This document shows, one piece after another, positions 1,657 to 61,079 of a stretch of DNA of 64,000 nucleotides (position 1 is its first letter; the number at the start of each line of letters is the position of its first letter). The stretch lies in IMG/VR virus record IMGVR_UViG_3300031088_000793; one strand, given 5' to 3'. The notes below the pieces were generated by a model that saw only the letters and a list, made by a program, of their open reading frames with translations, searched no databases and was not told where the DNA came from. Both the position numbers and the translations under genes were made by a program. Origin of the DNA: a virus. Taxonomy: Duplodnaviria; Heunggongvirae; Uroviricota; Caudoviricetes.

Positions 1657-2889
1657 TCAGCTCAGATCGATGAGCTTCGAGATCCTGGCAGGCTCTCGGC
1701 GCTCGATGGCCGCCTCGATGAGCAGAGGCTTCCTGAGCGTTGTGGAGGGGAGGCTATTAGCAATCCGACTCAGCGCGATCTTCGGGGTGGCTGCGTGGAC
1801 TACGATGAGCCTACTCGGTGCGAGCTCTAGGAGCATTTCGATCTCTCGGGATCCAGCGCGGAGCTCGTCCAGGGCTATGAGATCTGAACCGATTCGAAGG
1901 AGCTCAGTGGAGCCATTCGCTGCTGCTACCTCCGCGTCGAGCACAACAGCATTGGAGGCCCTGCGAGCATAGCGCTGCACGCCCTCGACGAGAAGAAGTG
2001 AGCGTAGCTTCGAGAGCTCGATGATGGAGTCGGCCAGGGTGCTCTTTCCGGTACCCGTCACGCCGAAGACTACGATGTCTCGACCCTGCTGAAGTCCCTC
2101 GGCAGCTGCGAGCACATTGTCGATGCTCCCCGATGACTCTGATGCCGTTTCGAAGACGGTCTGCGTCACACCCATGTTCTCGACCGTCAAAGCCGTGGGC
2201 CGGCTGTTCATCTCAGCACTGATCCGGCTGAGAACATTGGGGTCAAGGAGCCTAAGCCCAACGACTCCGTAGCTGCTCCGAGTTCCCTCGAGGTAGAGCG
2301 GATTACGGAGCTCGACATCCGGGTAGATCCGCTGGATTTGCTCGCTCACTCCATGCTCAGAGTTAGCGTGGACGACGATGATCCGGCGCTTCTCGGTCTG
2401 GAGCTGAGCCGCGATGGAGCCAGCTGCAGATCCATTGAGCCGCTGAACCTCATCGATGACGAGGATCTCAGCTTCCCCACTCTCCGCCTTCGGACCCTTG
2501 AGGAGCTCTCCGTAGTGCTGGTAGTGGCTCTGCAGGATCTTAGCAGTAAGCCCCGTAGCTGCGAGCACAGCATCGACCGCTACGCTCTTGCCCGTCATCG
2601 ACTTGCCGAAGATCACGAGGTCGCGCTCGGGAGAGAGTGTTGCTGCCGCGATGGAAGCAAGCTTGAGGTCAGCATCTGTCATCAGCTCAGAGAATCGATC
2701 CGTCAGGTGCTCCCAGTTGAGCCCCAGCGCAGTTGCTTCCTTCACAGTGTAGCAGGAGTCAATGGAGCCCAGATTGAGCCGAACCTGGAGATTGGCTGCA
2801 AGCGCGAGGGCCTGTGTATAGCTGAGCTTGCCGTTGCTCAGAGCCATGAGCTCTCGAGCCTTGAGCTTGTGCGAGTGATTGGCGACCAT
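1657..2889 (-). CDS. basic N-terminal module fused to two tandem VirB11/TadA/PilT-like P-loop domains
   Basis: start MVANHSHKLKARELM...SYTQAL; Walker A GKSMTGKS and GVTGTGKS; Walker B VIDEVQ and ALDELR; VVHA His-box-like motif twice. Confidence 0.75.
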   Translation of the reverse strand: MVANHSHKLKARELMALSNGKLSYTQALALAANLQVRLNLGSIDSCYTVKEATALGLNWEHLTDRFSELMTDADLKLASIAAATLSPERDLVIFGKSMTGKSVAVDAVLAATGLTAKILQSHYQHYGELLKGPKAESGEAEILVIDEVQRLNGSAAGSIAAQLQTEKRRIIVVHANSEHGVSEQIQRIYPDVELRNPLYLEGTRSSYGVVGLRLLDPNVLSRISAEMNSRPTALTVENMGVTQTVFETASESSGSIDNVLAAAEGLQQGRDIVVFGVTGTGKSTLADSIIELSKLRSLLLVEGVQRYARRASNAVVLDAEVAAANGSTELLRIGSDLIALDELRAGSREIEMLLELAPSRLIVVHAATPKIALSRIANSLPSTTLRKPLLIEAAIERREPARISKLIDLS

Positions 2890-3042
2890 GAGGTCTGTCC
2901 CTTCGGAGTCTCCCACACAGGCTCAACAAAGAGGAAAGAGGTTTGAAGTCCTGAGATGCTAAGCACCTTCCCCCTCGTGTGCTGTCCCGTGTGGGTGGAT
3001 AGCCAGAGGCCGCCTTCAGATCGGCGTAGGGCTACACTATCA
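2890..3042 (-). ncRNA. structured leader RNA class A, copy 1 (with TGATAGTGT promoter)
   Basis: 34 nt identical to 9052-9085; long-range helix CCCACAC/GTGTGGG. Confidence 0.7.
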
Positions 3043-3562
3043 CATCCGGACTCGAAGGAGTGCCACGGCGAGCTCTCAGAGAGCCCAGGACCATGAGCAC
3101 ACCGGCTCCAAGGATAGCCAGGGAGCCACCGAGGAAGACCTCTCGCCAGGGTGTCTCCTCGAGCTTAAGCGCAGGATCCACCAGGCTGGAATCAGCGGGA
3201 TTCCCGGGAGCGTAATAGACAGTGCGCTCAGCACCTTCCTTCTGAGCCTCGCCGCAGTCCCTCTGCTCCACGGCCTCTGCCTGGATGGACTCACCGGAAT
3301 CGGCGAGGAAGCTGTAGCTCACCGTGCAGACGGCCTGATCTCCGTAGCTCACTGACTCAGCGCCCGGGAGCACAGTGCCGACGGAGGTTGCTGTCAGCCT
3401 GGAGGCATCCTGTCCAGCGTCGATCCGAAGCCAGAGGGAGCCAGCCATGAGTAGAAGTCCGAGGAGCGCCAGGGCCGTTGCGGCGAGGTAGAAGCGCCTC
3501 GGAGTGAGGGCGCCGCGCTCCAGGGAACTGCGGCTGCCTAGGTAGGGGTTTCCATCGCTCAT
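3032..3562 (-). CDS. DUF3592-like membrane protein
   Basis: two TM segments flanking a beta-rich domain, V.Y.P.NP motif; start MSDGNP at 3562. Confidence 0.65.
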   Translation of the reverse strand: MSDGNPYLGSRSSLERGALTPRRFYLAATALALLGLLLMAGSLWLRIDAGQDASRLTATSVGTVLPGAESVSYGDQAVCTVSYSFLADSGESIQAEAVEQRDCGEAQKEGAERTVYYAPGNPADSSLVDPALKLEETPWREVFLGGSLAILGAGVLMVLGSLRARRGTPSSPDVIV

Positions 3563-3644
3563 GGATCGACTATCGACCGGTAGCGATGCGGGGCGCTCGG
3601 GGGCAGGGGCCGAAGCACTCGCAGCCCCCGAGCAGAGCGGGCCC

Positions 3645-3794
3645 TTAGGCCAGCTCGTAGATGTGCGCCTGCCTCTTGGACAGGACCCAGACCTCCTGGC
3701 CCCGGGCCATGAGCTCGGCGGCCAGGGCCCAGGCTGCGCCCGAGTCCTTGCCGAACTCGCGGATGGTCCGGTTCTTCCCGTAGATAACAACCAT
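3645..3794 (-). CDS. small hypothetical protein (49 aa)
   Basis: AAGGAG SD before MVVIYGK. Confidence 0.55.
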   Translation of the reverse strand: MVVIYGKNRTIREFGKDSGAAWALAAELMARGQEVWVLSKRQAHIYELA

Positions 3795-4010: not shown

Positions 4011-4015
4011 ATGGT

Positions 4016-5863: not shown

Positions 5864-5878
5864 GGTAGCCTCCTAGGA

Positions 5879-6934
5879 TCAGGCCAGCACGCGGGAGCTC
5901 GGCAGGGGAGCGTCGTCGGTCTCCACCTCAGCCTCGAACTTGTCCCGGAGGATCTCGACGATGGCCGCGTAGACCTTGGGGTTCTTGATCCGGGAGACGA
6001 ACTTCTTCGAGCGCGTGTAGGAGTAGGAGTTGGCGATGGAGTCCTGACCCCAGAGGATCTGCTGGAACTCCGAGATGTAGTCGCCCGGATCCTTCTTCCA
6101 CTGGCCGTAGGTCAGCGCGAGGTCATCCTCCTCGCCGAGGATGCTTCCGGAGGTCAGGATGTCCTCGGAGAAGAGTCCCATCTCCCGGGCGAAGTCGAAG
6201 GCCTTCTGGCCGAAGCCAGCGATGAGCGTGAGCTTCTCGACCTCGCTGAGCTCGCCGTAGCGGACGATGTTGAAGATGTTGTCCACGACTGCCGAGGAGA
6301 TCTCGTCGTAGTCGCAGTAGTTCACGATGTCATCGTAGTCCACATTGAGGAAGCCTCGAGGCATGGCGAACTTGTGCTTGGCCATCACATACTCGAAGTC
6401 GTCCACGATGGGAAGCATGCAGAGCCGCCGGCGGAAGGCTCCGGAGAGCCGCTTCGCAGCGTAGATAGCGTCCCGGCCGGGAGGGTTACAGGCACCGATG
6501 ATGTGGGTGGTCTTGGGAAGCTTCTGGCCATCGATGACGAAGTCAGAGAACATCTTCTGGAAACCTGAGAGCACATCCTGAGTGGTGTTGTTGAACTCGT
6601 CCACGAAGATGATGCACTTACCAGCTAGTGCCTTCTCAGCCCACTGGGGAAGAGCGGGCATGGTCTGCCAGACACCGTTGACCTTCTCGCGAGCTCCCAG
6701 GCCGATGATGTCGGTGGGCTCGATGCAGGCGAGGTTGAGGTCGATGAGAGTGTAGCCCATGCGCTTGGCCATCTTGGCGATGGTGGCGGACTTGCCGAGG
6801 CCGGGCTTGGAGATCAGGATGGAGACGAAGCGGTCCTCGTCGTTGGACTCCGCGTTCTCGAAGTTGCGGAAGAGCCTCTCGGTGAGCGAAATCGCTCCAT
6901 CGATGCTCTGGGAGAACATTTGCTTCTGGGCCAT
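5879..6934 (-). CDS. MoxR-like AAA+ ATPase
   Basis: SKPGLGKS Walker A, IIFVDEFN Walker B, GACNP, AFRRR arginine finger; adjacent VWA gene. Confidence 0.85.
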   Translation of the reverse strand: MAQKQMFSQSIDGAISLTERLFRNFENAESNDEDRFVSILISKPGLGKSATIAKMAKRMGYTLIDLNLACIEPTDIIGLGAREKVNGVWQTMPALPQWAEKALAGKCIIFVDEFNNTTQDVLSGFQKMFSDFVIDGQKLPKTTHIIGACNPPGRDAIYAAKRLSGAFRRRLCMLPIVDDFEYVMAKHKFAMPRGFLNVDYDDIVNYCDYDEISSAVVDNIFNIVRYGELSEVEKLTLIAGFGQKAFDFAREMGLFSEDILTSGSILGEEDDLALTYGQWKKDPGDYISEFQQILWGQDSIANSYSYTRSKKFVSRIKNPKVYAAIVEILRDKFEAEVETDDAPLPSSRVLA

Positions 6935-7126: not shown

Positions 7127-8104
7127 TTAGTCTACGACTGACTCGATCACCGGCGGCCTGTCGAGGGGGTAGCGCCTGCCCACGATGGATTCAGCGATCT
7201 TGCCGAAGGTTTTCCCGATCTCGTAGTCGGAGATGATCCGCTCCAGAGCGACCTCGTTCAGAGCGGTCCCTACGATCTTCGGAGCATCTGGGATCACACT
7301 GATGATCGGCAGCTCCTGAGCGTTGGCTACTATGTCCTTGCCGAGCAGAGCGCGCTCGGCTGTGGCTCGATTGACCACGATGCCGATCTTGTCCTTCGGA
7401 ACAGCCATGCCATGCTGGTCGAGGGGGCTCGTCACCTCCCGAATCCAGCGAGCCATCGAGAAGAGCGATGGCTTTGAGGCTTCGGTGACCATGAGGATGA
7501 AATCAGCTAGCGGATAGGCTACCCTCTCGACGGTGGGATCAAGGTAGTTCGATGCCGTGTCGATGATGATGTAGTCGTAGCTGGACTTCAGCTCCTCGAT
7601 GAGCTCCCTGTAGAACTCGGGAGGGAGCTCATCGGCTGATCGGGGCCTGCGGGGAGCCAGCATGAGATCGACCTCAAGTCCCTCGTCGTGGACCTTGGTG
7701 CCTTCGATCTCGCTCTTGCTGATGCCGTAGCGCTTGAGCCTCATCACGGTGGGCTTCCAGAATCCAGTGAAGACTCCGATCTGACCGTCCCGGACATCGA
7801 GATCCAGGACGATGACCTTCAGGGGGTCCTTTGCTGCGCCTCGGGCTACCGACACCTTCGAGGCCTTGGAGATGTAGCTCGCCAGGCTCAGAGCGACGGT
7901 GGTCTTGCCAGTGCCTCCCCGGGAAGAGGTCACGGTGACGACCTGCCCCAGTGGGTGGCGATGTTCGAAGACTGTGGGCTCTGCCCCGTCCTGTCTAGGG
8001 AGCTCCCCGGAGATCTCCAGGGTGAGCCTTGCTTCGAGATAGTTGAGTCCCGTTTCAGCCATGTAGCTGCGGATGACTCGCTTGATCTTGCGGTTGCTGG
8101 TCAT
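7127..8104 (-). CDS. basic N-terminal module fused to MinD/ParA/CpaE-like ATPase
   Basis: MTSNRKIKRVIRSYMAETGLNYLEARL; deviant Walker A SRGGTGKTT, LDLD, YDYIIIDT. Confidence 0.85.
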   Translation of the reverse strand: MTSNRKIKRVIRSYMAETGLNYLEARLTLEISGELPRQDGAEPTVFEHRHPLGQVVTVTSSRGGTGKTTVALSLASYISKASKVSVARGAAKDPLKVIVLDLDVRDGQIGVFTGFWKPTVMRLKRYGISKSEIEGTKVHDEGLEVDLMLAPRRPRSADELPPEFYRELIEELKSSYDYIIIDTASNYLDPTVERVAYPLADFILMVTEASKPSLFSMARWIREVTSPLDQHGMAVPKDKIGIVVNRATAERALLGKDIVANAQELPIISVIPDAPKIVGTALNEVALERIISDYEIGKTFGKIAESIVGRRYPLDRPPVIESVVD

Positions 8105-8263
8105 GAGTATCTACCTTCTGCGGTCAGCCCACGCTTTGACTGCACAGTAAGAGATCCATGGCAATCAGTAACCTACAGGATTCGGAAACCTTGCTCTAGA
8201 GGCGGTCGCGTGGGGACACTACCCAAAGACGGGCCGCTGTAGCCGGCCAGAGCTACACTATCA
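8105..8263 (-). ncRNA. structured leader RNA class B, copy 1 (with TGATAGTGT promoter)
   Basis: shares TGGCCG..ACAGC.GCCCGTCTT, CCCACGC/GCGTGGG helix and AGAGCAAGGTT(C)TCCGAATCCTGT with 13531-13688. Confidence 0.7.
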
Positions 8264-8337
8264 AAGCCCCGTAGGAAAATCTCACAGTTGCTGGAAGTGG
8301 CCACCCAGATCCCGCACCGCGGCTCCCCGCTCAGCAA

Positions 8338-8958
8338 TCAGGCTGCGCGGTGGATGCGCAGCCCTCGGGCTCTCAGCTCCCGGTCATAGACGGACTCAAG
8401 GAAGACAGGTGATCTGAGCTCTAGCTCTGGCATCATGCGCTCGAGCCTCCAGCGAGCACTGTCTAGATCCTCCCCATGGATCACGAGAATCCTAGGTAGC
8501 GCTGTCGAGAGCTGAGCTCCCTGATCTGCGAAGGAGCTGCGAAGCTCATCTACCATCAGTACCTCACTTCTGGCGGCTATAGATCCGGCAAAGTAATGCT
8601 GGGACTGGACAAAGGAGTAGACACCGGCTATGTCCAAAAAGCTCCTGAGCCAGGCTGCTTCGAGATAGTGGCTCGCGAGGATAAAAGCGCGGAGCTGCAC
8701 CGCTTGGAGCACACTGTAGGCAGCTGTGCTCTTGCCCGATCCGGCTAGACCGAAGATCACGAGATCGCTGCCGGCTACCAATGCCCTGGAGGCTTCAGCT
8801 ACGATGGCTTTGCTCTCAGCCGGGAGCTCCCGGGATCGAATCCTTCTAAGGCTGTCGATCTTCGTGACATGGGCCATGGCATCGGTGAAGCCTATGGGCT
8901 TTTCGCTATCGGCCATGATCCGTCGAGCGATTTTCTTCTGAGCGTGATTGGCGACCAT
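8338..8958 (-). CDS. basic N-terminal module fused to single VirB11/TadA-like P-loop domain
   Basis: MVANHAQKKIARRIM; GLAGSGKS, MVDELR, VIHG; paralog of 1657-2889. Confidence 0.75.
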   Translation of the reverse strand: MVANHAQKKIARRIMADSEKPIGFTDAMAHVTKIDSLRRIRSRELPAESKAIVAEASRALVAGSDLVIFGLAGSGKSTAAYSVLQAVQLRAFILASHYLEAAWLRSFLDIAGVYSFVQSQHYFAGSIAARSEVLMVDELRSSFADQGAQLSTALPRILVIHGEDLDSARWRLERMMPELELRSPVFLESVYDRELRARGLRIHRAA

Positions 8959-9102
8959 AGTGGATCCCTTCGGAGCTCCCGCACAGTTCAAAGAGATGGA
9001 AGAAGATGATCTGCGATGCTGAACACCTTCCCTCTCTGAGGCTTCCAGTGCGGGTGGATAGCCAGAGGCCGCCTTCAGATCGGCGGTATGCTCATACTAT
9101 CA
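8959..9102 (-). ncRNA. structured leader RNA class A, copy 2 (with TGATAGTAT promoter)
   Basis: helix CCCGCAC/GTGCGGG covaries with copy 1. Confidence 0.7.
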
Positions 9103-9103
9103 A

Positions 9104-9143
9104 AGAGGCGGAGCGAACGACCTAAGCCCTTCGCTCCGCCTCT
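9104..9143 (-). terminator. hairpin terminator after the ParM gene
   Basis: AGAGGCGGAGCGAA...TTCGCTCCGCCTCT. Confidence 0.65.
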
Positions 9144-9170: not shown

Positions 9171-10460
9171 TCAGTCCTTCTTCTTGGCTGCCTTCTTAGC
9201 CTCAGCCTTGTCCTGGGAGGCGAGGAAGAGCCCGGCCCTGTTGAGGTGGCGAGAGTAGGAGCCATCGAGGTAGAGGAGGGGGAAGGCGCTCACCGAGTTC
9301 ATCTCACTGATCTTGTCCTGGAGCCGGGAGTAGAGCACTTCCTTCATGGCTCCAGCGCCGCCTCCGTAGACGAAGCCGACCTCGGTCATGGCGCCCACAT
9401 TGCGGAGGATAGAGCCGAGCTTCTCAGCAACCTCATCCGCGAAGAACACTGACTCCTGATCCACGAACTGCTGAACCCGGCTGTGGAAGGCGCGCTTCAG
9501 TGCCGAGGGCTTCCTCTGCAGGAATTCAGCGAGCTCCTTCCGGGAGCTGAAGCCAGCCTCGATGCCCTGGTCCTCCATGGCCGTGATGGCAGAGATGAGC
9601 ACTGAGCCCCAGCCCTTGTCCAGAGTCCGGGAAGCGTCAGCGTTGAACTTTCCGTTGGTGAAGACGGGGAAGTTCACGGTGCCCTCTCCCACATCGATGC
9701 CGATGGTGTTGGTGGCAGCGAGCACATCCTTGGGAGTGATCTCAGCGAGCTCTTCCCGGCGCTCGGGAGTGGGAGCGTTCTCCAGCAGATCTGAGAGCAC
9801 CTTGTCCATGATGGAGGCGCCTCGCTCAGCGATGGCGTAGTGGGCCGAAGCGCCCTCGGCGAGGACCTCGACCTTCGAGAAGGTGATCCTCACCACCACG
9901 CTGGTCTCGAAGTTCTTCACCATGGCGATGTGGGCCTTGCCTCCGTTGATGAACTCAGCAGCGTAGCTCTCCCGGTGGCGCATGAACTCGGAGATGGGGA
10001 GAGCGAGCGCAGCGCTGGCGTCCACGAGGATCTCCTCGGTGGGGAGGCTTCCCTCCCGGGTCACATAGTCCTTCAGCGCCTTGGCGGCGAAGATGCCGAG
10101 CACCAGAGCCTTCGAGAGGGGCTGCTTAGCCTTGGAGGCCCTGCCCACAGTGTCGAACTCCTCGAAGGCGCCGTCGGCCGAGAGGGAGCGCATGCCGAAG
10201 ACCCGGCGGTAGCTGTCGGGGATCAGGGGACTGTCGAAGGACACATCGAGCTGATTGAAGAAGTCGGGATCGCTCTCAGCGAGGACCTCGGGAGCGTCCT
10301 CGTCAGCGATGGGGATCTGGTTGGGCCGGGTGAGGATAGCCACGGAGGAGGGCATGTCCACCGAATCCCGGGGCTTGCCGTCACCCCTGCTTTCGATGAG
10401 TGCCTTGACATAGCCGTTGCCGATGTCTAGCCCGCCGTTGAGCTCTACCTTGATCGCCAT
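9171..10460 (-). CDS. ParM/StbA family actin-like ATPase
   Basis: phosphate-1 GLDIGNGYVK, connect AEG, phosphate-2 GIDVGEGTVN, adenosine YGGGA. Confidence 0.85.
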   Translation of the reverse strand: MAIKVELNGGLDIGNGYVKALIESRGDGKPRDSVDMPSSVAILTRPNQIPIADEDAPEVLAESDPDFFNQLDVSFDSPLIPDSYRRVFGMRSLSADGAFEEFDTVGRASKAKQPLSKALVLGIFAAKALKDYVTREGSLPTEEILVDASAALALPISEFMRHRESYAAEFINGGKAHIAMVKNFETSVVVRITFSKVEVLAEGASAHYAIAERGASIMDKVLSDLLENAPTPERREELAEITPKDVLAATNTIGIDVGEGTVNFPVFTNGKFNADASRTLDKGWGSVLISAITAMEDQGIEAGFSSRKELAEFLQRKPSALKRAFHSRVQQFVDQESVFFADEVAEKLGSILRNVGAMTEVGFVYGGGAGAMKEVLYSRLQDKISEMNSVSAFPLLYLDGSYSRHLNRAGLFLASQDKAEAKKAAKKKD

Positions 10461-10567
10461 GAGATTTCCCTAGTTCAGTGTGCTGTTCATTGGAGCTATC
10501 CTATCGAAAGCTGCACAAAAGACGCGGATCTACACGGATTCGCTGAGAGGGTAGCGGGTGGATGAAC

Positions 10568-11065
10568 TCAGTACTTGAGCTCCAGGGCTCGCACGGCCTT
10601 CGTGGGCCTTGCCTTGCCCGTGAAGTAGCCCCGGACGATGATGGAGCCGTGCTGATTGAGGTAGAAGGTGTTGAACTCGAAGTTCGGATCGAACATCGGA
10701 CGGGGATAGTCATCCGAAGGGTCGGAGATCTCTTTGAATCCTCCAGCGATGAGCTCGTCAGCAATGAGCCGGTTGATCCGAGCCTCATCCTCCTTCGAGA
10801 ACTTGAGGTCGAATCCCCAGGCCGTGAGCGAGAGCTCCCCCTGATCCTTAGCTCGTTCCTTAGTCTGCTCGTTGAAGGTCACATAGAGCTCGTAGTCTCC
10901 CCAGTCTTCGGAGGAGATCTCCATGAAGCCATTGAGTCGGGCTCCAGCACAGCTGCTGCAGCACTCGAACTTGGGAAGGTAGCGAAGCCTGCCAGCGAGC
11001 TCTAGGGGCTCCAGCGCCTTGGCTAGAGTCTTGAAGCTGCTCTCAGTGGGCATTGCGAAGCTCAT
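10568..11065 (-). CDS. hypothetical protein with FECCxxCA motif
   Basis: paralog of 16113-16673 (YLP.FECC..CA, TFN.QTK). Confidence 0.7.
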   Translation of the reverse strand: MSFAMPTESSFKTLAKALEPLELAGRLRYLPKFECCSSCAGARLNGFMEISSEDWGDYELYVTFNEQTKERAKDQGELSLTAWGFDLKFSKEDEARINRLIADELIAGGFKEISDPSDDYPRPMFDPNFEFNTFYLNQHGSIIVRGYFTGKARPTKAVRALELKY

Positions 11066-11274
11066 GGGTTCTCCTCGGGTATCGCGGCCATGGTATCGAG
11101 AGCTGCTCCATGACCCTCAGCGGCCCTAGCCTGCGCCCTGAGACGCTTTCAGCACAGAAATGTGGGCGTGTGTCGAGCCGAGCACAGCGGGCTCAGAACA
11201 GCAGCTACTGAGCTACTGGAGTCAGTCGAAGGCTCCGTTAGCCATCCACTCGATGGTGCCGTGGCCCGGAGGGG

Positions 11275-11688
11275 TCAGGCTACGCTGTCGGGGACCAGCA
11301 CACCTGAGCGGATCAGCTTCCGGATCCTGCGCTGAAGCTTAGAGGGCAGCGGCTCCCAGTCTGTTTCGGGCACGGAGGGGAGAAGGAGCGTCAGCTGGAA
11401 CCAGCCGATCCCTCGAGTGTAGCTGATCGCAGCTGTCAGTATGGGGCTGAGCGTTTCCGGGCCTACCCGCTTGGCTGCGACGATGTCTTCGGAGAGTTCG
11501 ATGTCCTCCAGGGAGGTCATGGTCAGTCCCAGATAGTCCAGCCTGTCTCTGAGCTCATCCAGAGTCTCAGCTCGAAGGAAGCCCACTACGAGGCTGTCGG
11601 AACCTGACTTCAGCCGCTCGTACTCCTCGAAGCCCCGAAGATAGTCAACCTTGGCTGTGTCCTCGAAGAACCTGTCGAAGAACTCCAT
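11275..11688 (-). CDS. hypothetical protein
   Basis: ORF with GGGAG SD. Confidence 0.65.
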   Translation of the reverse strand: MEFFDRFFEDTAKVDYLRGFEEYERLKSGSDSLVVGFLRAETLDELRDRLDYLGLTMTSLEDIELSEDIVAAKRVGPETLSPILTAAISYTRGIGWFQLTLLLPSVPETDWEPLPSKLQRRIRKLIRSGVLVPDSVA

Positions 11689-13496: not shown

Positions 13497-13530
13497 CCTC
13501 GAAGCCTCCGGTGCACAGCTGCGCTCAGTG

Positions 13531-13688
13531 TGTTAGCATGGGACTGGCCGCCCACAGCAGCCCGTCTTAGAGCAACGCTCCCACGCAGCGAGCTCGGCAA
13601 GAGCAAGGTTCTCCGAATCCTGTGGATGCATGGACTATCTCCTATCGAGTAGCCAGGCGTGGGACGGCTGCAGAACAGGAATAGCACC
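13531..13688 (+). ncRNA. structured leader RNA class B, copy 2 (with TGTTAGCAT promoter)
   Basis: CCCACGC 13580-13586 pairs with GCGTGGG 13657-13663; homologous to 8105-8263. Confidence 0.7.
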
Positions 13689-15182
13689 ATGACCAAGAAC
13701 CGTCGCAGGAAGCAGGACGCTCGCCGCCAGAAGGCCGCAGAGTCAGTCAGCTACACTCAGGCTCTCCGAGAGACTCAGCTCCAGTCCGCCGGCCAGGAAA
13801 TCCTAGGGATCCCCACTTCGCTTCCGAGCCTCACCGGCTACACTGGAGGCTGGCAGCCCGGACAGCTCATCACAGTGGGCGCTGGAATCGGCGTAGGTAA
13901 GTCCGTCTTCGCCCTCAACAGTGTCGTTGCCGCTCTCCGAGCAAAGAGCTCAGTGCTCCACTTCTCCTTGGAGCTAAGCGCTGAGGAAGTCACCCAGCGT
14001 AGGCTATCATCCATGAGCGGCATCTCCCTGGGAGCCCTCAAGGACGGGATCGAAACTGACGCACTGGAGCAGGCTCGCGTTGAGTCTCAGTGGTTCAAGT
14101 ACGCGCTGGTCGCAGAGCCCGAACAGACCTTGGATTCCATCAGCTCCCGAGCTCGCCTCCAAGCTCGAAGCGGGTTCGGCCTCGATCTCATCGTCATCGA
14201 CAGCCTCCAGCTCATCGCAGCCACGGGTGAACCCTCGCTGCGGCATGAAGCAGTTACCCGAATCTCTCGGGGGCTCAAGCTCCTCGCCGAGGAGCTCCAG
14301 ATCCCCATCATGGTCACCGCTCAGCTCAGCCGCTCCTTCCACGAGCGCCTTGGAGGTCCCCGGATCTCCGACATCCGAGAATCTGGTTCTATCGCTATGG
14401 ACTCCGATGTGATCGTGCTCCTCAACAGAAGGTACGATCTCGGAGAGGTCGCTCAGCCCACACAGGTCATCCTCGCTAAGAATCGAGGAAGCAGCCAGGG
14501 TCAGATCATTGAGTGCCACACTGAGTTCGACTGGGCTACCCTCCGCGAGATCAAGGCCAATCCGCTGACCCTCGCCGAGGCACGGACCAGGATCAATCCC
14601 AACCCCATCCTTCAGCGCTGGAGCGCAGCCATCGAAGCTGGAAGCCACACCGTCCGAACCCTCGCAGCTAAGAAGTTCAGCGAGGGCTGGACCACCGACG
14701 GCGAAGGTGCAGATGTTTCTCACCAGGCAGATGCCTCCAATGAGCTCAGCAGGCTGAAGCGGTTCGTGGAGAACTGGCTCGACGGTACCGAAGCCACGGG
14801 GGCACTCAAGCCCTCCATGCTGGCCATGGTAGAGAGCTGGAGCCGAGGACAGGCGGCTCCCGGAGACCTGGAGCCCCAGGAGGGACTCGTCTGGCCTCTG
14901 GGGGAGGACAGCGAAGCCTGGTTCATCCAGGGCACAACGGATGAGGAGCTCGCTGTGGGAAGCCTTAGCCGCTGGCTCCACAGCTCTGACCCCGAGACAC
15001 TGGAGAGCTACGAGGATCTCGAGACTGAACTCAGCAGCGATCTCACCGCCCGGGACGACTGGTTCTGGGCGCCCCTCGTCGGAGGACCCCAGGACGGCGA
15101 CCTGGAGCTCTGCCACTACGGCAAGGACAGCGCTCGCTGGACCGGCCAGCCGCTGGTCCGAGGCGTCCACGCTCAGGTCTAA
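13689..15182 (+). CDS. basic N-terminal module fused to DnaB-like helicase ATPase domain plus unknown C-terminal domain
   Basis: MTKNRRRKQDARRQKAAESVSYTQAL; GIGVGKS, FSLEL, VIDSLQL, AQLSR, DIRESGSIAMDSD, AKNR; lacks the DnaB N-terminal domain. Confidence 0.85.
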   Translation: MTKNRRRKQDARRQKAAESVSYTQALRETQLQSAGQEILGIPTSLPSLTGYTGGWQPGQLITVGAGIGVGKSVFALNSVVAALRAKSSVLHFSLELSAEEVTQRRLSSMSGISLGALKDGIETDALEQARVESQWFKYALVAEPEQTLDSISSRARLQARSGFGLDLIVIDSLQLIAATGEPSLRHEAVTRISRGLKLLAEELQIPIMVTAQLSRSFHERLGGPRISDIRESGSIAMDSDVIVLLNRRYDLGEVAQPTQVILAKNRGSSQGQIIECHTEFDWATLREIKANPLTLAEARTRINPNPILQRWSAAIEAGSHTVRTLAAKKFSEGWTTDGEGADVSHQADASNELSRLKRFVENWLDGTEATGALKPSMLAMVESWSRGQAAPGDLEPQEGLVWPLGEDSEAWFIQGTTDEELAVGSLSRWLHSSDPETLESYEDLETELSSDLTARDDWFWAPLVGGPQDGDLELCHYGKDSARWTGQPLVRGVHAQV

Positions 15183-23893: not shown

Positions 23894-25012
23894 CTAGCCG
23901 ATGGGCCTATCGGGAGACATCTCCTTGAGCACAACGGGCTGGAGGCGGTTGGAAAACCCCGAGGAGAGCGCCTTATCAGCTATCGCGGGGAGCGCTCCAC
24001 CCTGTGCAGCTACCTCCCTGCTGCTATCCCTGAGCTCCTGGGGGAAGTAGGGAATCTCGAAGTCGATCTGACCCTGGTGAGTCAGCACCGATGCTCTACC
24101 TATGACTCCGTTGGAGCGCTTCGGCGAGTAGAGCTCCCGGACATGCTTCGGAAGATCCTCTGGAGAAAGCCTACCGAGGGCTACGGGGAGGAAGTTGAAG
24201 ATCTCGCTGTCTAGGGGTGACTCCTCGTAGGCACCTGAGATCGAGAGGTGGATGCCCGCAGGCCTGCCGAGCCGAACGATCTTCTTCAGCAGTCGAAGGG
24301 AGTCCATGGCCTGAGTTCTCGTGTCGAAGTCGGAGGACTCCATCGCATCGAGGAGTGGCTCCAGAGCGTCCACGAGCACCAATATCCGATTCATGGTGTG
24401 GCCTTCGGGGAGCGAGCTCCGGTCATTGAGGCCCAGCGCTTCGAGGTTCCGGTAGCGACCGTCGAGGAGTCCCTCGATCCGGGAGAGCATCCTGTGGACA
24501 GATTCCACAGTGGTTGCGATCTCGGTGGAGACCAGGGGATAGTCGACATACTCAGTGAGCTCTACCTTCTTCAGGTCGATGCCGTAGAAGTCCCAGTCTC
24601 GAGAGAGGCAGTGGTAGAAGAGCGCTCGCTGAATGACGCTTGCTCCACTCCCGGAGGGCTGCCGGTGGAGCCAGAGGTTGGGGTCCCGGCGAGTGTCCCA
24701 GTAGACCGACTCTCCTGTGATGTCCGTGCCGAGGAGCACCTTGGAGGGGTCACCCTGGGGATCGAAGATCCGAGCGAAGAGCTCTTCGCTTTCGAGCTTA
24801 GGCCAGGCCTTCCAGATCAGGCCCTTCTCAGTGAGCAGCTCTCGGAGCGCGCCGTCGGCTCTGCTTCCGGGAGCCACATCGAGCTTCAGACCGCCTCGGT
24901 CCTTGAGCTCGGCGTCTCCGGCCGTGAGCATGATGGAGTCCTGGCGGGGGTCATAGGAGACTCTCACATCGTCCAGGATGAGGAACTTGTTGTGCTTAGG
25001 CTGCTTCGCCAT
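23894..25012 (-). CDS. degenerate FtsK/SpoIIIE-like protein
   Basis: start MAKQPK; PSGSGAS in place of Walker A, YGIDLKKVEL, LVDAL, RLGRPAGIHL. Confidence 0.75.
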   Translation of the reverse strand: MAKQPKHNKFLILDDVRVSYDPRQDSIMLTAGDAELKDRGGLKLDVAPGSRADGALRELLTEKGLIWKAWPKLESEELFARIFDPQGDPSKVLLGTDITGESVYWDTRRDPNLWLHRQPSGSGASVIQRALFYHCLSRDWDFYGIDLKKVELTEYVDYPLVSTEIATTVESVHRMLSRIEGLLDGRYRNLEALGLNDRSSLPEGHTMNRILVLVDALEPLLDAMESSDFDTRTQAMDSLRLLKKIVRLGRPAGIHLSISGAYEESPLDSEIFNFLPVALGRLSPEDLPKHVRELYSPKRSNGVIGRASVLTHQGQIDFEIPYFPQELRDSSREVAAQGGALPAIADKALSSGFSNRLQPVVLKEMSPDRPIG

Positions 25013-44432: not shown

Positions 44433-45494
44433 TCACCTTTCAGGTGCGGTTCGGAGCTCCCGGAAGGACTCGAGCGCCACATAGGAGGCTCCCAGCTGAG
44501 GCTGAAGCTCCGTTGCCTCGCCGAAGAGAGCTAGCCTCACAGCGTCCCAGATCAGGTTGACTCCAGTGAGCTCAGTTGCGTAGAGACCCCCAGCCGGTCG
44601 AGTGTTGGTTTCGAGGAGAGCTAGCTCCCCACGCCACCAGCGAAGCTGAGTGTTGGTGATGTAGCGAAGGCCCCGGCCAGCGTAGAGGCGCTCCACGAGC
44701 TCAAGCGCTTCGGGATAGGCCTCGGTGAAGACTCGGGATCGGCTGAGCTTAGCCCGGGGAATGAGCTTCAGCAGCTCTCCCTCGGTGCTGCTGAGACAGT
44801 CCACGCTGAGCTCCGGATCCTCGAGGAAGGGTAGGAGCATGAGCTCGGGCAGATGCTCACCAGCAGCTTCGCTACCCCGATAGGCCTCGATGAGCTTTGC
44901 CGAGCTCACGGTGGGATTCCTGCTCAGGAGATCATCGATGGATCGCCGGCCGTCATCGATGATCCGGAAGCCCTGAGCCCCCACACCCACTGTGGGCTTG
45001 ATGACCACTCGATCCTCGGGAGAGAGCTCACTGCGGAGCGATTCGAGCGCCAGTTCGATGCCAGCGGCCGTGGAGGCGACTCTCCAGGGCGGCACGGCTA
45101 CCCCGGCTCGCTGAGCCGCTGCGTAGGTCAAGTTCTTGTCCTCGAAGAGCCGAAGCGCTGAGGCTGAAGAGGCCAGCACCTTGACCCCCAGAGCGGCGAA
45201 GCGCTCCTCAGCCTCAGCGATGACTTCGATCCGGTGGCGAGGAAGGAAGATCTCGATGCCGTGGCGTTCGCAGAAGTCTAGCGCCCACTCCACATAGGCC
45301 CTGTCGTCGAGCTTCGGCTCTAGCTCAGTGAGGTCAGCACCCTGGAGCACCGGGGAGTTCGGATCACTGTGGGTGGCGTAGATCTTGACCTCAACTCCAT
45401 CCGGATTGGCCCGGAGCATGGGCATGAGCCAGAAGTTGGTGGCAAAGGTTCTGTTGAACCAGATCCGGACTGGAGTGGATGGAGCGAGCGTCAT
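44433..45494 (-). CDS. ATP-grasp domain protein
   Basis: IWFNRTF, EDK..TY, IKP.VGVGAQGFR, ELSVDCL, LLETNTRPAGG. Confidence 0.85.
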   Translation of the reverse strand: MTLAPSTPVRIWFNRTFATNFWLMPMLRANPDGVEVKIYATHSDPNSPVLQGADLTELEPKLDDRAYVEWALDFCERHGIEIFLPRHRIEVIAEAEERFAALGVKVLASSASALRLFEDKNLTYAAAQRAGVAVPPWRVASTAAGIELALESLRSELSPEDRVVIKPTVGVGAQGFRIIDDGRRSIDDLLSRNPTVSSAKLIEAYRGSEAAGEHLPELMLLPFLEDPELSVDCLSSTEGELLKLIPRAKLSRSRVFTEAYPEALELVERLYAGRGLRYITNTQLRWWRGELALLETNTRPAGGLYATELTGVNLIWDAVRLALFGEATELQPQLGASYVALESFRELRTAPER

Positions 45495-46967: not shown

Positions 46968-47141
46968 CGTCTAATCCTTGCTTGAGGCCGTCAGGCTCTT
47001 CTCTGGTCTTACTGATCCTATCATACCGAAGTGCCCTGCCCAGACCAGCCCCTACGCCGTTGCGCTGAGCAGTGCCATAGCATAGGATAGCACGGCCACA
47101 GCCATGCCGAGCTGTGCTCTAACTCCGAAGGACTCTCACCG

Positions 47142-56265: not shown

Positions 56266-57201
56266 CTAGAGCTCTAGGACTCCGTAGGAACTCCGAGAGT
56301 AGGGGTATCCAGGACGCCCCTCTTCCTCCAGGGTGATGATGTCCCCGTCGAGGGTGAAGGTGAAGACCACTCCAGTGACATCGCGGAGCACGAAGTCCTT
56401 GCTCCGGAGCCCGAGGCCGTCGAAGAATCCCTGCAGATCATCCGGATACTGGCTAAGGAAGATCCGAAGGCTATTGAGCTGGGATCTATCTGTGGCCCTG
56501 CCGTAGAGCGGATCCACTGAGGTAGCCAGGAGGCTGTAGGAGCTAGACCACTTCTCGAAGAAGCTGCCGCCATCGCCGTTGGTGTGGTAGCGAGGGAGAT
56601 TGAGCTCTCCGGCAGGTCTGCCTTCGATGAGCGCAGAGAGCTGGTCTTCGGTGATGGGGAGCAGCGTGAAGCGGTCCTGGATGTCAGTGTGACGAGCTAT
56701 GCTCACTCCGAAGATCCCCAGCCGATCACCCTCGAGGAAGATCGTGTCCATGCCGGCGCCGATCCGTGCCCCGTAGTGATGGAGGAAGGGCTCCAGAGCT
56801 GGAGCGTCAGCACCGAGCAGTCCCCCGCGCTGCAGCACTCGATACTCCCAGATGTTCTCAGCTCCGGCATCTTCGAGGAGCTGTAGCCGTCTCCCGATCT
56901 CTCTGAGGAGGTCCCGGGTTCCGTCGAAGTGAGAGAGCCCCGCGGCCTTGATGGTGCTGAGATAGGCAGGGTTGCCGAAGTCGTAGCTGAGCTCAGGGTA
57001 GGCTGAGGAGTAGATGCTCTCCTCACCGATGAGCCGAAAGTGAGGGTAGAGCGCGGTGTACCTCTGAGCTGGAAATGCTGAGAAGGTCCGGAGCTCGTGG
57101 AGTGGCTCATCGACGGCCTTGAGCGCTGAGAGGTAGGAGAGACCGTGGGTCTCTGCGAAGTCCTTGGCTCGCTTCTTCAGTGCCTTGTTCGCTGTTGCCA
57201 T
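56266..57201 (-). CDS. basic N-terminal module + FtsK-remnant family, paralog 1
   Basis: N..LK..A..F...HGLSY..ALKAVDEPLHELR; E..RR...L...G..NIW.YR; EPF.HHY. Confidence 0.8.
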   Translation of the reverse strand: MATANKALKKRAKDFAETHGLSYLSALKAVDEPLHELRTFSAFPAQRYTALYPHFRLIGEESIYSSAYPELSYDFGNPAYLSTIKAAGLSHFDGTRDLLREIGRRLQLLEDAGAENIWEYRVLQRGGLLGADAPALEPFLHHYGARIGAGMDTIFLEGDRLGIFGVSIARHTDIQDRFTLLPITEDQLSALIEGRPAGELNLPRYHTNGDGGSFFEKWSSSYSLLATSVDPLYGRATDRSQLNSLRIFLSQYPDDLQGFFDGLGLRSKDFVLRDVTGVVFTFTLDGDIITLEEEGRPGYPYSRSSYGVLEL

Positions 57202-57389
57202 GGGGTTAGCCGATTCCGTGGTTCACTACCCTGCGCCTACCGAACCACTGTCTGCTGAGCTTGGCGGCATCTGTCTGTTGAAGTGGAGCAAGAGCGGCCG
57301 CCATCGAATAGCTGTCTGGAATGTGATCGACCCGCGCAGGGAGTCGAAACCAGGAGCCCGATCCGCAGGGCTCACTGGCTACGCTATCA
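57202..57389 (-). ncRNA. structured leader RNA class C, copy 1 (TGATAGCGT promoter)
   Basis: GAGCCC/GGGCTC hairpin, CTGGTTTCGACTC, CCTGCGC/GCGCAGG helix; four homologous copies. Confidence 0.75.
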
Positions 57390-57433
57390 CACTTCCAGCA
57401 GAGCTCCAAACAGCTGACGGACGATCTGAGTGC

Positions 57434-58330
57434 TCAGTCCCAGAGGAACATGTGCTCAGTGCTGCCGAACTCAAAGAGAGACTCTTCGTCCAGCGTGGCC
57501 GTAATGTGACTGCTGAAGTGCCTGAACTCGATCGTTCCGTCCGACAGATCGCGGAAGGTGAAGCCGAAGGGGTCGAGCCCTCTGGCTCTCATTTCTCCGT
57601 GGAGCTCATCGAGGTCTCTCCTGAAGAGGATGGCCATCTGTGGGAGATCGAAGCGGTTGTTCTTAGCCTTTGAGATAGCGAGCACGCTATAGCGATCAGT
57701 CCAGCAGTCAGGGCTGCTAGGATCATCGCTCTCCGCGCGTCTAAACCCCTCGATGGGACCTACGGGGGTGCCAGAGCTCAGCGCCGTGAGCTGCTCAGGA
57801 GTGACGGGGATGAAGCTGTGGCTATCCTGAATCTCTAGGAATCCGGACAGGTTGACGGGAATGAGCCCCAATCTGCGGCCCATGGCATACATGGGAGCAT
57901 AGGGCGACCTTAGCTCTTCGAAGTAGTGATGGAAGAACGGCTCGAGCTCCGGCTCATCTGGGCCCAGGATGCCGGAGCGCTGCAGCTCTCGATACTCCCA
58001 GTATGTCTCCAGACCCCTGTCCTTGAGGATCTGGTGGCGTCTAGCTGACTCCCCGATGAACTCCCAGAGACCCTTGAACTGACTCAGCTCATCGCCAGCC
58101 ATGTAGGGCATTTCTAGCCCTCGAGCGCTGTAGACTGAGCCATAGCTACCCTGTTTGTCCACGACGCGGAACATCGTAGCGAAGTTGAAGTCCTGAGTCT
58201 GGGGAAGCTCCATGAGGTCGCGGAGCTCGTGGAGTGGCTCATCCACTGCCTTCAGCGCGACGGTGTAGGAGACATCGTGCTTCGCTGCGAAGGCCTGTGC
58301 TCGACGCTTGAGCTTGTTGTTCTGTGCCAT
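57434..58330 (-). CDS. same family, paralog 2
   Basis: MAQNNKLKRRAQAF...SYTVALKAVDEPLHELR. Confidence 0.8.
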   Translation of the reverse strand: MAQNNKLKRRAQAFAAKHDVSYTVALKAVDEPLHELRDLMELPQTQDFNFATMFRVVDKQGSYGSVYSARGLEMPYMAGDELSQFKGLWEFIGESARRHQILKDRGLETYWEYRELQRSGILGPDEPELEPFFHHYFEELRSPYAPMYAMGRRLGLIPVNLSGFLEIQDSHSFIPVTPEQLTALSSGTPVGPIEGFRRAESDDPSSPDCWTDRYSVLAISKAKNNRFDLPQMAILFRRDLDELHGEMRARGLDPFGFTFRDLSDGTIEFRHFSSHITATLDEESLFEFGSTEHMFLWD

Positions 58331-58514
58331 GGGCTATGCCGTTCCATGGATCTCACCCTGCGCCTGCTGATCCACTTGACTGCTTGCCGGTAGGGCTACT
58401 GAACAATGGAGGTGGAGAGCGGCCGTCTACCGGGTAGCTGTCTGGATTGCTCCGAGCCCGCGCAGGGGGATCGAAACCAGGAGCCCGGACCGCGGACTCA
58501 CTCCCATGCTAACA
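58331..58514 (-). ncRNA. structured leader RNA class C, copy 2 (TGTTAGCAT promoter)
   Basis: same blocks as copy 1. Confidence 0.75.
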
Positions 58515-58553
58515 CACTGGAGTCAGTTCCGCGATCCGGGCTAGCTAGGTCGA

Positions 58554-59753
58554 TCAGCGACCGGCCTCGCTGGCTGCCGAGGGCCTAGTAGGCCTTTCGT
58601 CCCAGATATGAGGATTGTCCCACTCAAGCTGCAACCTCTCGGGTCCACCGTTGCGGCCACAGCCGTAGCAGGAGAAAAAGCCGCGAGGCTCACGCTCCGG
58701 GTAGATGACGAATCTGTCCCCGTTCTCCTCATGGAAGGGGCAGGCAGTAGAGATCTTGTTCTCATCATCCCTAGTAAGCGTGCCGTCGGACTCTCGCTCA
58801 AACTTCGCTCCGATGCTCTCGGCCACCTCCAGGATGGTGGGCCTCACGGGGAGCTCCTTTCCCCAGATGAGCACACGCATGAGGCTATTGCTCAGAGAAG
58901 CGTCCAATTCGACCTCACGGCCTCTATGCTTGACTCGGAGGTGTGACTCTATGGCGCGAAGCTCCAGCTCTAGCTCAGAGATGTTCCTGAAATCAAAGTC
59001 GAGCGGATCAAGATCCCTGCTGCGAAGCTCTTCCTGGAGCGATGGTAGATCACCCTTAAAGAGCACAGAGAGCAATGACTGATGGCCATAAATGTCCTTG
59101 GCCCTGGAGGTAGCGAGTATGCTGAACCTATCCTCCCAATCAGCCCAGCCCTCGAGCTCAGCACCTACGATCTGAGTGAAGCGCTCGATGGCTCCCACGG
59201 GTTCGCCGTTACCGAGCGCCTGGAGCTGATCCTGGGTCACAGGTATGAACTTCTCACTCTCATCCCGGATACCCATGAACTCTGTAGTGTTGACGGGATA
59301 GATCCCTGAGATACTCCCAAGGATGTGCTGTAGCGATCTGTAGGGACCATTGAGCCCCTCATCGTAGTGATGGAAGAAGGGCTCTAGAGCCTCAGCGTCG
59401 GCGTCTAGTAGTCCAGCTCTCCAAAGTTCCCTGTAGGCCCAGATGTTCTCTGTACCTGAGGCTTCGAGGAGGCCTTCCCTCCGTACGATCTCTTTGAGAC
59501 ACGCGATGGGGTTCTCAAAGGACGAAAGCCCTAGGTTCTTAGTTAGATCGTAGGAATCTACTCCAGGAAAACCAGAGCCGTAGCTCCCTTGCCGGGGGAC
59601 GATTCGAAAGCTGTGCGCTCCGTAGTAGCTGCGGCCGATGTCCCGGAGCTCGTGGAGGGGCTCATCCACCGCGCGGAGGGCCGTGCTGTAGCCCACAGCG
59701 TGCTTCTCCATGAAGGATCGAGCGGCTCGCTTGAGATTGGCGTTGTTGGTCAT
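58554..59753 (-). CDS. same family, paralog 3, with C-terminal CHC2 (primase-type) zinc finger
   Basis: family N-terminus; CPFHEE...FFSCYGCGRNG. Confidence 0.8.
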   Translation of the reverse strand: MTNNANLKRAARSFMEKHAVGYSTALRAVDEPLHELRDIGRSYYGAHSFRIVPRQGSYGSGFPGVDSYDLTKNLGLSSFENPIACLKEIVRREGLLEASGTENIWAYRELWRAGLLDADAEALEPFFHHYDEGLNGPYRSLQHILGSISGIYPVNTTEFMGIRDESEKFIPVTQDQLQALGNGEPVGAIERFTQIVGAELEGWADWEDRFSILATSRAKDIYGHQSLLSVLFKGDLPSLQEELRSRDLDPLDFDFRNISELELELRAIESHLRVKHRGREVELDASLSNSLMRVLIWGKELPVRPTILEVAESIGAKFERESDGTLTRDDENKISTACPFHEENGDRFVIYPEREPRGFFSCYGCGRNGGPERLQLEWDNPHIWDERPTRPSAASEAGR

Positions 59754-59940
59754 AGCTTAGCTCTTCCGTGGATCCTCATCCTGCGCCTGCTGACCCACTC
59801 GTTGCTTAGCCTATGAGAAGGTGCCAAGGAACTGCTAGGGAAAGCGGTCGCCTATCCAATAGCTTCCCGGACTCATCCGATCCCGCGCAGGGGGATCGAA
59901 AACCAGTAGCCCGACCGTGGGCTCAGAGTCCACACTATCA
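59754..59940 (-). ncRNA. structured leader RNA class C, copy 3 (TGATAGTGT promoter)
   Basis: same blocks as copy 1. Confidence 0.75.
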
Positions 59941-59992
59941 TACTGGAGTCAATCTGCAAAGAGACCAGCGACCGCTTTCCTCAGCTCAGCAC

Positions 59993-60892
59993 TCAATCCC
60001 AGAGGAGGATCTTGTCCGTACCGCCCCGGACGATCCTTTTGCTTCCCTGTCCTACCCTGAGAGAGGTGCCCCAGAGCTCGAAGTTGAGCTCGACCTCGAC
60101 CCCATCATCGGCTAGATCCTCTACTGCACAGCGCCAGGAGGGAATGCCTCTACGCTCGAGATCGTCGATCAGCTCACCGGACGGCTTCTTAGAGAAAACA
60201 GTCACGCTGGGCCGATTGTGACTGTCCTTGCGCGTGGAGACCGCCATCGAGCGGTAGCTGTCTGTCCAGCGCTCAGCGTCATCCCTCTCTGCGAGGGAGT
60301 AGCGGAAGCCCTCGACGGGGCCTGCGGGACTACCTTCGGCCAGGGACTTGAGCTGCTGGTCAGTAACGGGGATGAGTGGGAAATGCTCAGAGATGAAAGC
60401 AAACTGATCCATGTTCACTCCGAAGATTCCGAGCATTCCTCCGTGGACAGCGATGGGACTGAAGGATGATCCAAGCTCACCCATGTAGTGATGGAAGATC
60501 GGCTCGATTTCAGGGGAGTCGGGAGCAGTAAGTCCCGCCCGGCGAAGCTCTCTGTAGTACCAGATATCCAGCACCTTGTGATCCCGGAGGAGCTGGTACC
60601 TTCGAACTGACTCCTCCATGTACTTCAGGCTATTCCTATAGCTGAAACGGTCGTCGTGTCCTGTGCCGCTAGGGCTGAGCAGATTCTTGCTGAAGTAGGG
60701 CTCGCCGTAGATGCTATCCTCAGTTACGAGCCTGAAGCCCTGTGCGAAGGAGAACTCTCTAGCACGGGGATTTCTAAGGAGTGATCTCAGCTCGTGGAGG
60801 GGCTCATCCACCGCGCGGAGGGCAGTAGAGTAGGAGACGCTGTGGCGCTCCATGAAGCTGCGAGCCTGCTGCTTGAGAGTGTTCTGGACCAT
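59993..60892 (-). CDS. same family, paralog 4
   Basis: MVQNTLKQQARSFMERHSVSYSTALRAVDEPLHELR. Confidence 0.8.
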   Translation of the reverse strand: MVQNTLKQQARSFMERHSVSYSTALRAVDEPLHELRSLLRNPRAREFSFAQGFRLVTEDSIYGEPYFSKNLLSPSGTGHDDRFSYRNSLKYMEESVRRYQLLRDHKVLDIWYYRELRRAGLTAPDSPEIEPIFHHYMGELGSSFSPIAVHGGMLGIFGVNMDQFAFISEHFPLIPVTDQQLKSLAEGSPAGPVEGFRYSLAERDDAERWTDSYRSMAVSTRKDSHNRPSVTVFSKKPSGELIDDLERRGIPSWRCAVEDLADDGVEVELNFELWGTSLRVGQGSKRIVRGGTDKILLWD

Positions 60893-61079
60893 GGGCTGAG
60901 CCGTTCCGTGGATCTGCTGAACCTGCGCTTGGCCGATCCACTGAGTGCTGAGCCTGGAAGGCAGAATGAGCAGTGCTAGTGGATGACGGCCGCCTACCTA
61001 GTAGGTCTCTGGATCGATCAGCCTCGCGCAGGGAGTCTGAACCAGGAGCCTAGACCGCAGGCTCAAGGTGATCCTATCA
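60893..61079 (-). ncRNA. structured leader RNA class C, copy 4 (TGATAGGAT promoter)
   Basis: GAGCCT/AGGCTC hairpin covaries with GAGCCC/GGGCTC of copy 1. Confidence 0.75.

Follow-up and report, generated by a model that had tools for sequence, protein, structure and literature searches.

A predicted kissing-loop leader RNA and a short N-terminal peptide as a probable portable gene-control cassette

Introduction

Why would eight genes with unlike products share both their first thirty or so codons and the long structured leader in front of them? The question is raised by the virus record IMGVR_UViG_3300031088_000793 (Caudoviricetes), a stretch of 64,000 nucleotides (nt), the whole of which is called the window here. 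An interpretation made from the letters of this DNA (the sequence-only reading) had proposed that a structured leader RNA and a basic N-terminal peptide module form a portable unit grafted onto different NTPases, and that the peptide may bind its cognate RNA. The computational analysis described here bears out the portable unit and revises the anatomy of the RNA; leader and peptide together are probably a self-contained gene-control cassette, for which autogenous control of translation is the mechanism that we favor, tentatively, over several alternatives.

The leader RNA

The eight genes are named by their start coordinates (2889, 8104, 8958, 57201, 58330, 59753 and 60892 on the minus strand, 13689 on the plus strand). 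All are open frames beginning with the motif that the sequence-only reading had ascribed to them, and the extended −10 box and common leader architecture that it saw upstream were recovered as well: the box precedes eight of eight genes, and the upstream regions align as three classes, A (2889, 8958), B (8104, 13689) and C (the four tandem paralogues). Only the length given for the leader, 140–190 nt, needed slight adjustment, to 149–193 nt from the −10 box to the ATG. Leaders were then located with one nhmmer profile per class in the window and in eight related loci, together about 230 kb of this lineage; the loci, on contigs from other samples, had been reached by way of proteins homologous to the class C protein or to the ParA-like protein. 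This gave 23 leaders of class C, 5 of class A and 7 of class B, with E values from 1e-19 to 1e-51.

The layout consists of a 5′-terminal hairpin (P1), a conserved linker, a further hairpin (P3), a variable middle domain and a last hairpin (P6). The P3 loop of 7–9 nt holds the element K1, which begins CC(C) and starts 48–53 nt past the −10 box in nearly every copy; its partner K2 lies in the loop of P6, the 3′ arm of which ends at the Shine-Dalgarno (SD) sequence in all classes. K1 and K2 can pair through 6–8 Watson-Crick base pairs, and what had been described as a CCC-led helix closing 70–110 nt is in fact this loop-loop pairing of two hairpins. A MAFFT alignment of the combined leader classes misplaces K2. 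In an anchored comparison of all classes and the copies from outside the lineage, the P3 stem covaries, the P6 stem covaries in most copies, and the eight forms of K1/K2 found across classes and lineages are complementary every time (for example CCCACAC/GUGUGGG, CCCGCAC/GUGCGGG and UCCACGC/GCGUGGA). These comparisons support an intramolecular kissing loop in the leaders, and the three classes constitute one undescribed RNA superfamily.

For class C, a covariance model was built, the 23 copies were realigned to it and the pairs counted. Standard pairs fill 97.3% of the cells, versus 26–48% when the partners are slid against each other; 11 of the 34 pairs are altered on both sides, most of the compensatory changes lying in P3 (six of its eight pairs), and the covariation score of 0.277 (0.156 in shuffles) is reached by none of 500 shuffled alignments. 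The 7-bp K1/K2 pairing itself is invariant within class C, and the class C model detects neither class A nor class B at an E value of 1.

In keeping with the candidate new system of the sequence-only reading, the leader matched no Rfam family and the peptide no Pfam family. With Rfam 15 at the gathering score there was no match across the window; at E values up to 10, far sub-threshold models of animal microRNAs and of a togavirus frameshift element fell on two class A leaders and the other leaders were untouched. A leader copy from Amycolatopsis (see below) has no Rfam match either. A known ribozyme or riboswitch was rejected on this ground. A conserved terminator or attenuator was rejected too, since the consensus matched just once, weakly, in one class C copy and the alignments show no U-tracts, and so was a single-stranded DNA promoter of the kind found in conjugative leading regions, for which the −10 box should not fall, as it does, outside the folded part.

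The peptide and its coupling to the leader

The peptide is encoded by the first 30–35 codons of each gene and comprises about 30 residues that are basic and arranged as two helices. Lys8 and Ala25 are invariant and Asn4 is nearly so; four different codons encode the invariant alanine. While an AlphaFold2 (AF2) model of the class C protein P0006 from its single sequence reached a predicted local distance difference test score (pLDDT) of 39, the model based on an alignment of 30 relatives, which was used instead, scored 88.6, with 90–96 across peptide residues 11–40. It places helices at residues 2–18, 22–29 and 34–41, so that a helical hairpin is predicted for the module; this monomer is helical from residue 2 and has no N-terminal strand, a model that could still accommodate a strand forming in a dimer only. 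No Pfam family was found for the peptide, including in ten stand-alone module proteins searched at E values up to 10, nor did any ribbon-helix-helix (RHH) or helix-turn-helix (HTH) model match those ten at that threshold. A sequence profile search of the PDB with the module gave chance matches only (E 0.4–0.8), and no Rop chain among them; for a stand-alone module protein, the ESM Atlas yielded nothing.

All 35 leaders, those of the window as well as those of the eight related loci, precede a frame that starts with the peptide. Conversely, when this DNA was translated in all six frames and scanned with a peptide profile, the same 35 frames and no others were found, the next best candidate having an E value of 0.24; within the window no frame beyond the eight is found, in keeping with the exclusivity that the sequence-only reading had noticed. 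The same profile found no frame in 1.1 Mb of control loci, made up of unrelated DNA from a loose DNA-pattern search of IMG/VR that gave chance matches only, plus L131, a distant part of a 673-kb contig of this lineage. In this lineage, the coupling of leader and peptide is strict and one to one.

Between orthologues, leaders are 62–94% identical, the first 35 codons 59–87% and the cargo DNA behind them 45–69%. The boundaries are sharp in a comparison of gene 58330 with its counterpart at L121, where identity rises from about 40% to 80–100% at the −10 box and falls again near codon 37, the leader being 94% and the cargo 51% identical; the first 39 codons differ by 16 synonymous and two non-synonymous changes. 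This substitution pattern, together with the variety of codons used for the invariant residues, shows that selection acts on the protein sequence of the peptide and on the nucleic acid of the leader, on the latter more strongly than on synonymous sites; both are under strong purifying selection. The proposal that RNA and peptide form a portable unit is upheld: the stretch between the −10 box and about codon 37 is a conserved block, its flanks are about 40–50% identical, and unrelated cargo follows, as would be expected if the two move together as a discrete unit.

The cargo proteins

What the cassette is attached to differs from gene to gene. The cargo of gene 13689 is a DnaB-like helicase, scoring 166 bits for DnaB_C (PF03796, E 1.3e-48) where the Pfam cut-off is 27, and has its Walker A motif at residue 75. 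That of gene 8104 likewise qualifies by its family scores as a ParA/MinD (CbiA) ATPase (PF01656, 31.7 bits against a cut-off of 25.4; PF13614, 30.5 against 27); this product shares 58% identity, across 82% of its length, with P0050, a TadZ/CpaE-like protein of 458 aa (L131, 10001–11377) from a tad/type II secretion (T2SS) cluster elsewhere on a 673-kb contig of this lineage. In gene 8104, the N-terminal domain of the long form P0050 is replaced by the 30-aa module, and the gene looks like a resident gene captured behind the cassette. The products of genes 2889 and 8958 have generic P-loop/AAA matches in Pfam, of which only PF00004 and PF07728 lie just above their cut-offs, no stretch being significant alone; an orthologue of the class A cargo at L130 has a faint T2SSE match.

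The class C cargo is represented by four tandem paralogues (56266–60892, minus strand), with further copies in relatives. It contains no Walker A motif, and the only Pfam family found in it is a C-terminal CHC2 zinc ribbon in P0007; the longer class C paralogues carry this DnaG-type ribbon as an addition. A Foldseek search of the PDB with the P0006 model returned no match at an E value of 0.001 or better. The top five structures by VIA-align were EccC, FtsK and TcpA ATPases, a weak but consistent likeness (Z 4.5–5.8, root-mean-square deviation 4.4–6.6 Å, 128–138 residues aligned) by which the class C cargo is possibly a degenerate translocase-like domain. Of the unrelated domains that had been listed for the eight genes, the DnaB-like and the ParA/TadZ-like cargo hold, and the double P-loop cargo may be TadA-like; class C may be an FtsK remnant, but it has no Walker A and no Pfam NTPase match, and its structural likeness to FtsK/EccC is weak at Z 5.8.

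Distribution beyond the lineage

A search of 1.84 billion representative proteins with a 35-residue module profile yielded 272 module-headed clusters at E values up to 0.001, with lengths of 36–675 aa and the match at residue 1 in nearly all; many of them resemble high-GC actinobacterial proteins. When 58 of the longer cluster proteins were compared with Pfam, DnaB_C (7), FtsK_SpoIIIE (4) and AAA_16 (8) were found as well as ParA, T2SSE, KaiC-like, DEAD and STAND NTPases, while many had no family; wherever cargo could be recognized among the module-headed clusters, it was a P-loop NTPase.

The upstream regions of nine such outside genes bear on the expectation that homologues of the module keep the upstream structure. 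This is so in part: six of the nine have the same leader architecture, and the three others, small stand-alone module proteins, have no leader. The six leader-bearing copies come from two plasmids of Amycolatopsis sp. AA4, three metagenome contigs from soil and one contig of 37% GC, in which the architecture stands ahead of a ParA-like gene with the module. The plasmid genes of Amycolatopsis sp. AA4 are WP_009086558.1 and WP_009086260.1. The second Amycolatopsis leader was found by blastn of the plasmids with the leader only, and its gene turned out to open with a diverged module; in the two plasmids, the pattern of linker plus K1 matches exactly at the two known leaders only, and the module profile finds both leader genes plus two marginal matches. 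Further blastn matches to the leader in plasmids of Ralstonia, Curtobacterium and S. clavuligerus were short and were rejected as spurious on inspection. Protein-based scans of viral contigs did not find the cassette, and no leader without a module was met in any sequence examined. By these matches, the cassette is widely distributed, spanning plasmids of Actinomycetota and metagenomes.

A model of autogenous control and its alternatives

Proteins that read pseudoknots or kissing loops at ribosome-binding sites are known; S15 acts on rpsO, gp32 on its own message in phage T4 and Rop on the kissing loops of ColE1. In the model that we favor, each of the eight genes would be its own transcription unit under the extended −10 promoter, and its mRNA would open with a leader of about 140–180 nt in which the loops of P3 and P6 are joined in a kissing complex beside the ribosome-binding site. 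The peptide, as part of the finished or the nascent protein, would bind this complex and so tune how its own mRNA, along with sister mRNAs of that class, is translated; NTPases of mobile elements, which may be harmful in excess, would thus obtain dosage control regardless of the cargo. Such autogenous translational control through the predicted binding of the kissing-loop leader by the peptide has, in our estimate, a probability of roughly 0.4. It is favored because the association survives large shifts in GC content, leader class and cargo, because the peptide is basic and helical, and because the conserved tertiary pairing lies at the entry point of the ribosome. Put more broadly, and more tentatively, the helical hairpin may be a transferable autoregulation tag that reads the kissing loop of its own RNA, gives the fused gene dosage control or cis-tethering, and has been grafted onto hundreds of different proteins, the majority of them NTPases from mobile elements, within the Actinomycetota and outside them.

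Several observations weigh against this model. That the peptide binds the leader, as the sequence-only reading also supposed, we infer from their co-occurrence, and within this lineage duplication of the promoter-leader-start unit could alone account for that co-occurrence. Thermodynamic folding of the eight copies shows no consistent burial of the SD, the mean unpaired probability of which is 0.26–0.58, as compared with 0.33–0.39 for the rest of the leader. Moreover, three stand-alone module proteins of 42–82 aa (L135, L138 and L141/L142) lack a leader, so that the coupling is not obligate; two of their genes overlap or abut the preceding gene and one trails it by about 75 nt, and in these operons the peptide must have a role independent of a leader in cis. 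The stand-alone proteins could be partners of leaders in trans, or the role of the peptide could be independent of the leader altogether. For an RNA-antitoxin-like switch, which had also been suggested, nothing speaks.

The absence of leaders from the stand-alone genes is also what would be expected if leader and peptide had separate functions and were merely inherited together. The leader would then be a general cis element, be it a 5′ stabilizer, a translation enhancer or an operator for a factor in trans (a stand-alone module protein, a small RNA or a metabolite), and the peptide an anchor that binds DNA or a partner on behalf of ring or filament NTPases, with promoter, leader and start spreading as one recombination module. 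The sharp-edged block from the −10 box to about codon 37 fits this well, as do P1, which resembles known mRNA stabilizers in being a 5′-terminal hairpin, and a cargo made up mostly of DNA-handling NTPases (DnaB, FtsK, ParA, T2SSE and HerA-like folds). However, linkage alone should have broken across sequences that range from 37% to about 70% GC and at least four leader classes, in all of which the pairing of leader and module is kept, and every leader met in the sequences examined came with a module; we consider separate functions somewhat less likely than autogenous control, though the most likely of its alternatives. It is also conceivable that control acts on DNA, the peptide being a small domain that binds DNA and shuts down the promoter of its own gene, and the conservation of the leader being in part that of an operator. 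N-terminal autorepressor domains are familiar from type Ia ParA proteins and RHH antitoxins, and the pattern of helix, G-x-S/N turn and helix in the peptide is typical of RHH proteins; yet P1, P3, P4, P6 and the pairing of the loops all show compensatory changes, which point to a folded single strand rather than a duplex operator, the alignments contain no repeated motif beside the −10 box that resembles an operator, and both the failure of RHH and HTH models to match even at an E value of 10 and the lack of an N-terminal strand in the AF2 monomer model weigh somewhat against such a fold. Repression at the DNA level is therefore improbable.

The same anatomy could serve a different end, in that the nascent peptide might capture its own mRNA leader and stay tethered to it as a ribonucleoprotein, so that the protein acts in cis near its template DNA or the mRNA is carried along, for instance during transfer of the element. 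The peptide leaves the ribosome first, with its putative binding site only about 40 nt upstream on the same mRNA, and the cargo serves replication, partition and transfer of mobile elements, functions for which cis action is known in some initiators and transposases; nevertheless, it is from anatomy that this proposal is drawn, and cargo as diverse as STAND and DEAD proteins does not suit it, which leaves it a slim chance. Finally, translation might require an activating pseudoknot under the control of an antisense RNA, as for the rep genes of IncB and IncI-alpha plasmids. There, as in the IncL/M activators, an upstream hairpin pairs through its loop with bases immediately ahead of the ribosome-binding site of a gene on a mobile element (repZ, repA), and the pairing of a loop with the region ahead of the ribosome-binding site is indeed present here. 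In contrast to those systems, no antisense extended −10 box was found in or near any of the eight leaders and no leader peptide frame is conserved, let alone coupled, while the conserved N-terminal module would be left unexplained and has no counterpart in the plasmid systems; we rejected this type of control as very improbable.

Coordinates and genomic surroundings

The features of the eight cassettes are collected in Table 1.

Table 1. Leaders and genes of the eight cassettes in the window
Feature	Coordinates	Strand	Remarks
Class A leader 1	2890..3044	-	−10 box, P1 hairpin, P3 hairpin with loop K1 (2995-2989), K2 (2918-2912), SD
Gene for module + two P-loop domains (P0001)	1657..2889	-	Walker A at residues 104 and 285
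Class B leader 1	8105..8265	-	K1 start 8214
Gene for module + ParA/MinD (CbiA) ATPase	7127..8104	-	58% identical to TadZ/CpaE-like P0050
Class A leader 2	8959..9104	-	K1 start 9054
Gene for module + single P-loop domain (P0003)	8338..8958	-	Walker A at residue 81
Class B leader 2	13529..13688	+	K1 start 13580
Gene for module + DnaB_C helicase	13689..15182	+	DnaB_C E 1.3e-48
Class C leader	57202..57391	-	P1, P2, P3/K1, P4, P6/K2
Class C paralogue P0005	56266..57201	-	module, then cargo without known family
Class C leader	58331..58516	-	class C alignment and orthologue comparison
Class C paralogue P0006	57434..58330	-	AF2 pLDDT 88.6; weakly FtsK/EccC-like predicted fold
Class C leader	59754..59942	-	class C alignment
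Class C paralogue P0007	58554..59753	-	C-terminal CHC2 (DnaG-type) zinc ribbon
Class C leader	60893..61081	-	class C alignment
Class C paralogue P0008	59993..60892	-	module + class C cargo

The extended −10 box (T.TG.TAG..T) occurs at 10 sites in the window, eight of them ahead of module genes. The remaining two (47015–47025 and 37095–37105, both on the minus strand) precede genes with short, unrelated leaders of about 40–50 nt that have neither the fold nor the peptide; because these two genes use the box without either, it is to be regarded as a general promoter of the region that lies outside the cassette proper.

The window has a GC content of 61% and encodes no tRNA; most of its genes are short, most are on the minus strand and most belong to no Pfam family. 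The contig that holds it has 673,773 bp, related contigs have 475–698 kb, and relatives of this replicon assemble repeatedly at 673–698 kb in different samples. L131, of the same lineage, encodes LigA, tad-type T2SSE and T2SSF, TcpE, a VirB4-like ATPase and Replic_Relax. The replicon is a cellular genome of very small size or else a giant mobile element.

Interspersed with the cassettes are an actin-like gene of the ALP_N/ParM type (9171–10460), an AAA+ gene (5879–6934) and an FtsK/SpoIIIE-like gene (23894–25075), all on the minus strand; the order ParA-like, ALP, AAA is also found in L128 and L129, an arrangement that hints at a module for segregation or transfer within a mobile region. The class C array is flanked by a Ter-operon-type ATP-grasp gene (44433–45494, minus strand) and a Laminin_G_3/ConA-like gene (61233–62660, minus strand), both of which are kept beside it in the relatives L125, L126 and L127; in L127, a gene for an IS605 OrfB/TnpB (Cas12f-like) protein (10112–11401) sits between two class C cassettes. 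PADLOC assigned no defence system.

Relation to known systems and implications

The closest precedents for the model of autogenous control are operators such as those read by S15 on the rpsO pseudoknot, by T4 gp32 and by threonyl-tRNA synthetase (ThrRS), which also combine a structured 5′ leader with tertiary pairing by the ribosome-binding site and have the gene product as the binder, as proposed here. However, there is no sequence relationship, and each of these operators is tied to one protein, whereas the RNA-peptide tag proposed here would be transferable among many unrelated ones. Like ColE1 RNA I/RNA II with Rop (Rom), the cassette combines two hairpins whose loops form a helix of about 7 bp with every base paired, and a predicted helix-turn-helix hairpin peptide that could read such a shape; there, though, kissing takes place between two RNAs at a replication primer and not within one mRNA leader, and the likeness is one of analogy. 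In the case of lambda N and boxB, a basic N-terminal helix recognizes an RNA hairpin in a leader transcript, which is what is proposed for the peptide; N is arginine-rich and acts in trans in antitermination at downstream terminators, while in the cassette there is no conserved terminator and the peptide is part of large enzymes.

Whatever its mode of action, the leader represents a widespread, strongly conserved family of structured RNAs with a clean intramolecular kissing loop that is absent from Rfam, and the peptide a short protein module that is absent from Pfam and heads at least 272 protein clusters; a cultured strain with a plasmid-borne copy, Amycolatopsis sp. AA4, is at hand. Should the peptide indeed recognize the leader that precedes it, the cassette would be the first portable control module made of RNA and peptide. 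The genes that it marks belong to plasmids and to giant mobile or variable regions, among them those for replication, partition, pilus and secretion ATPases and STAND NTPases, and the cassette may explain how such elements restrain NTPases that are potentially toxic.

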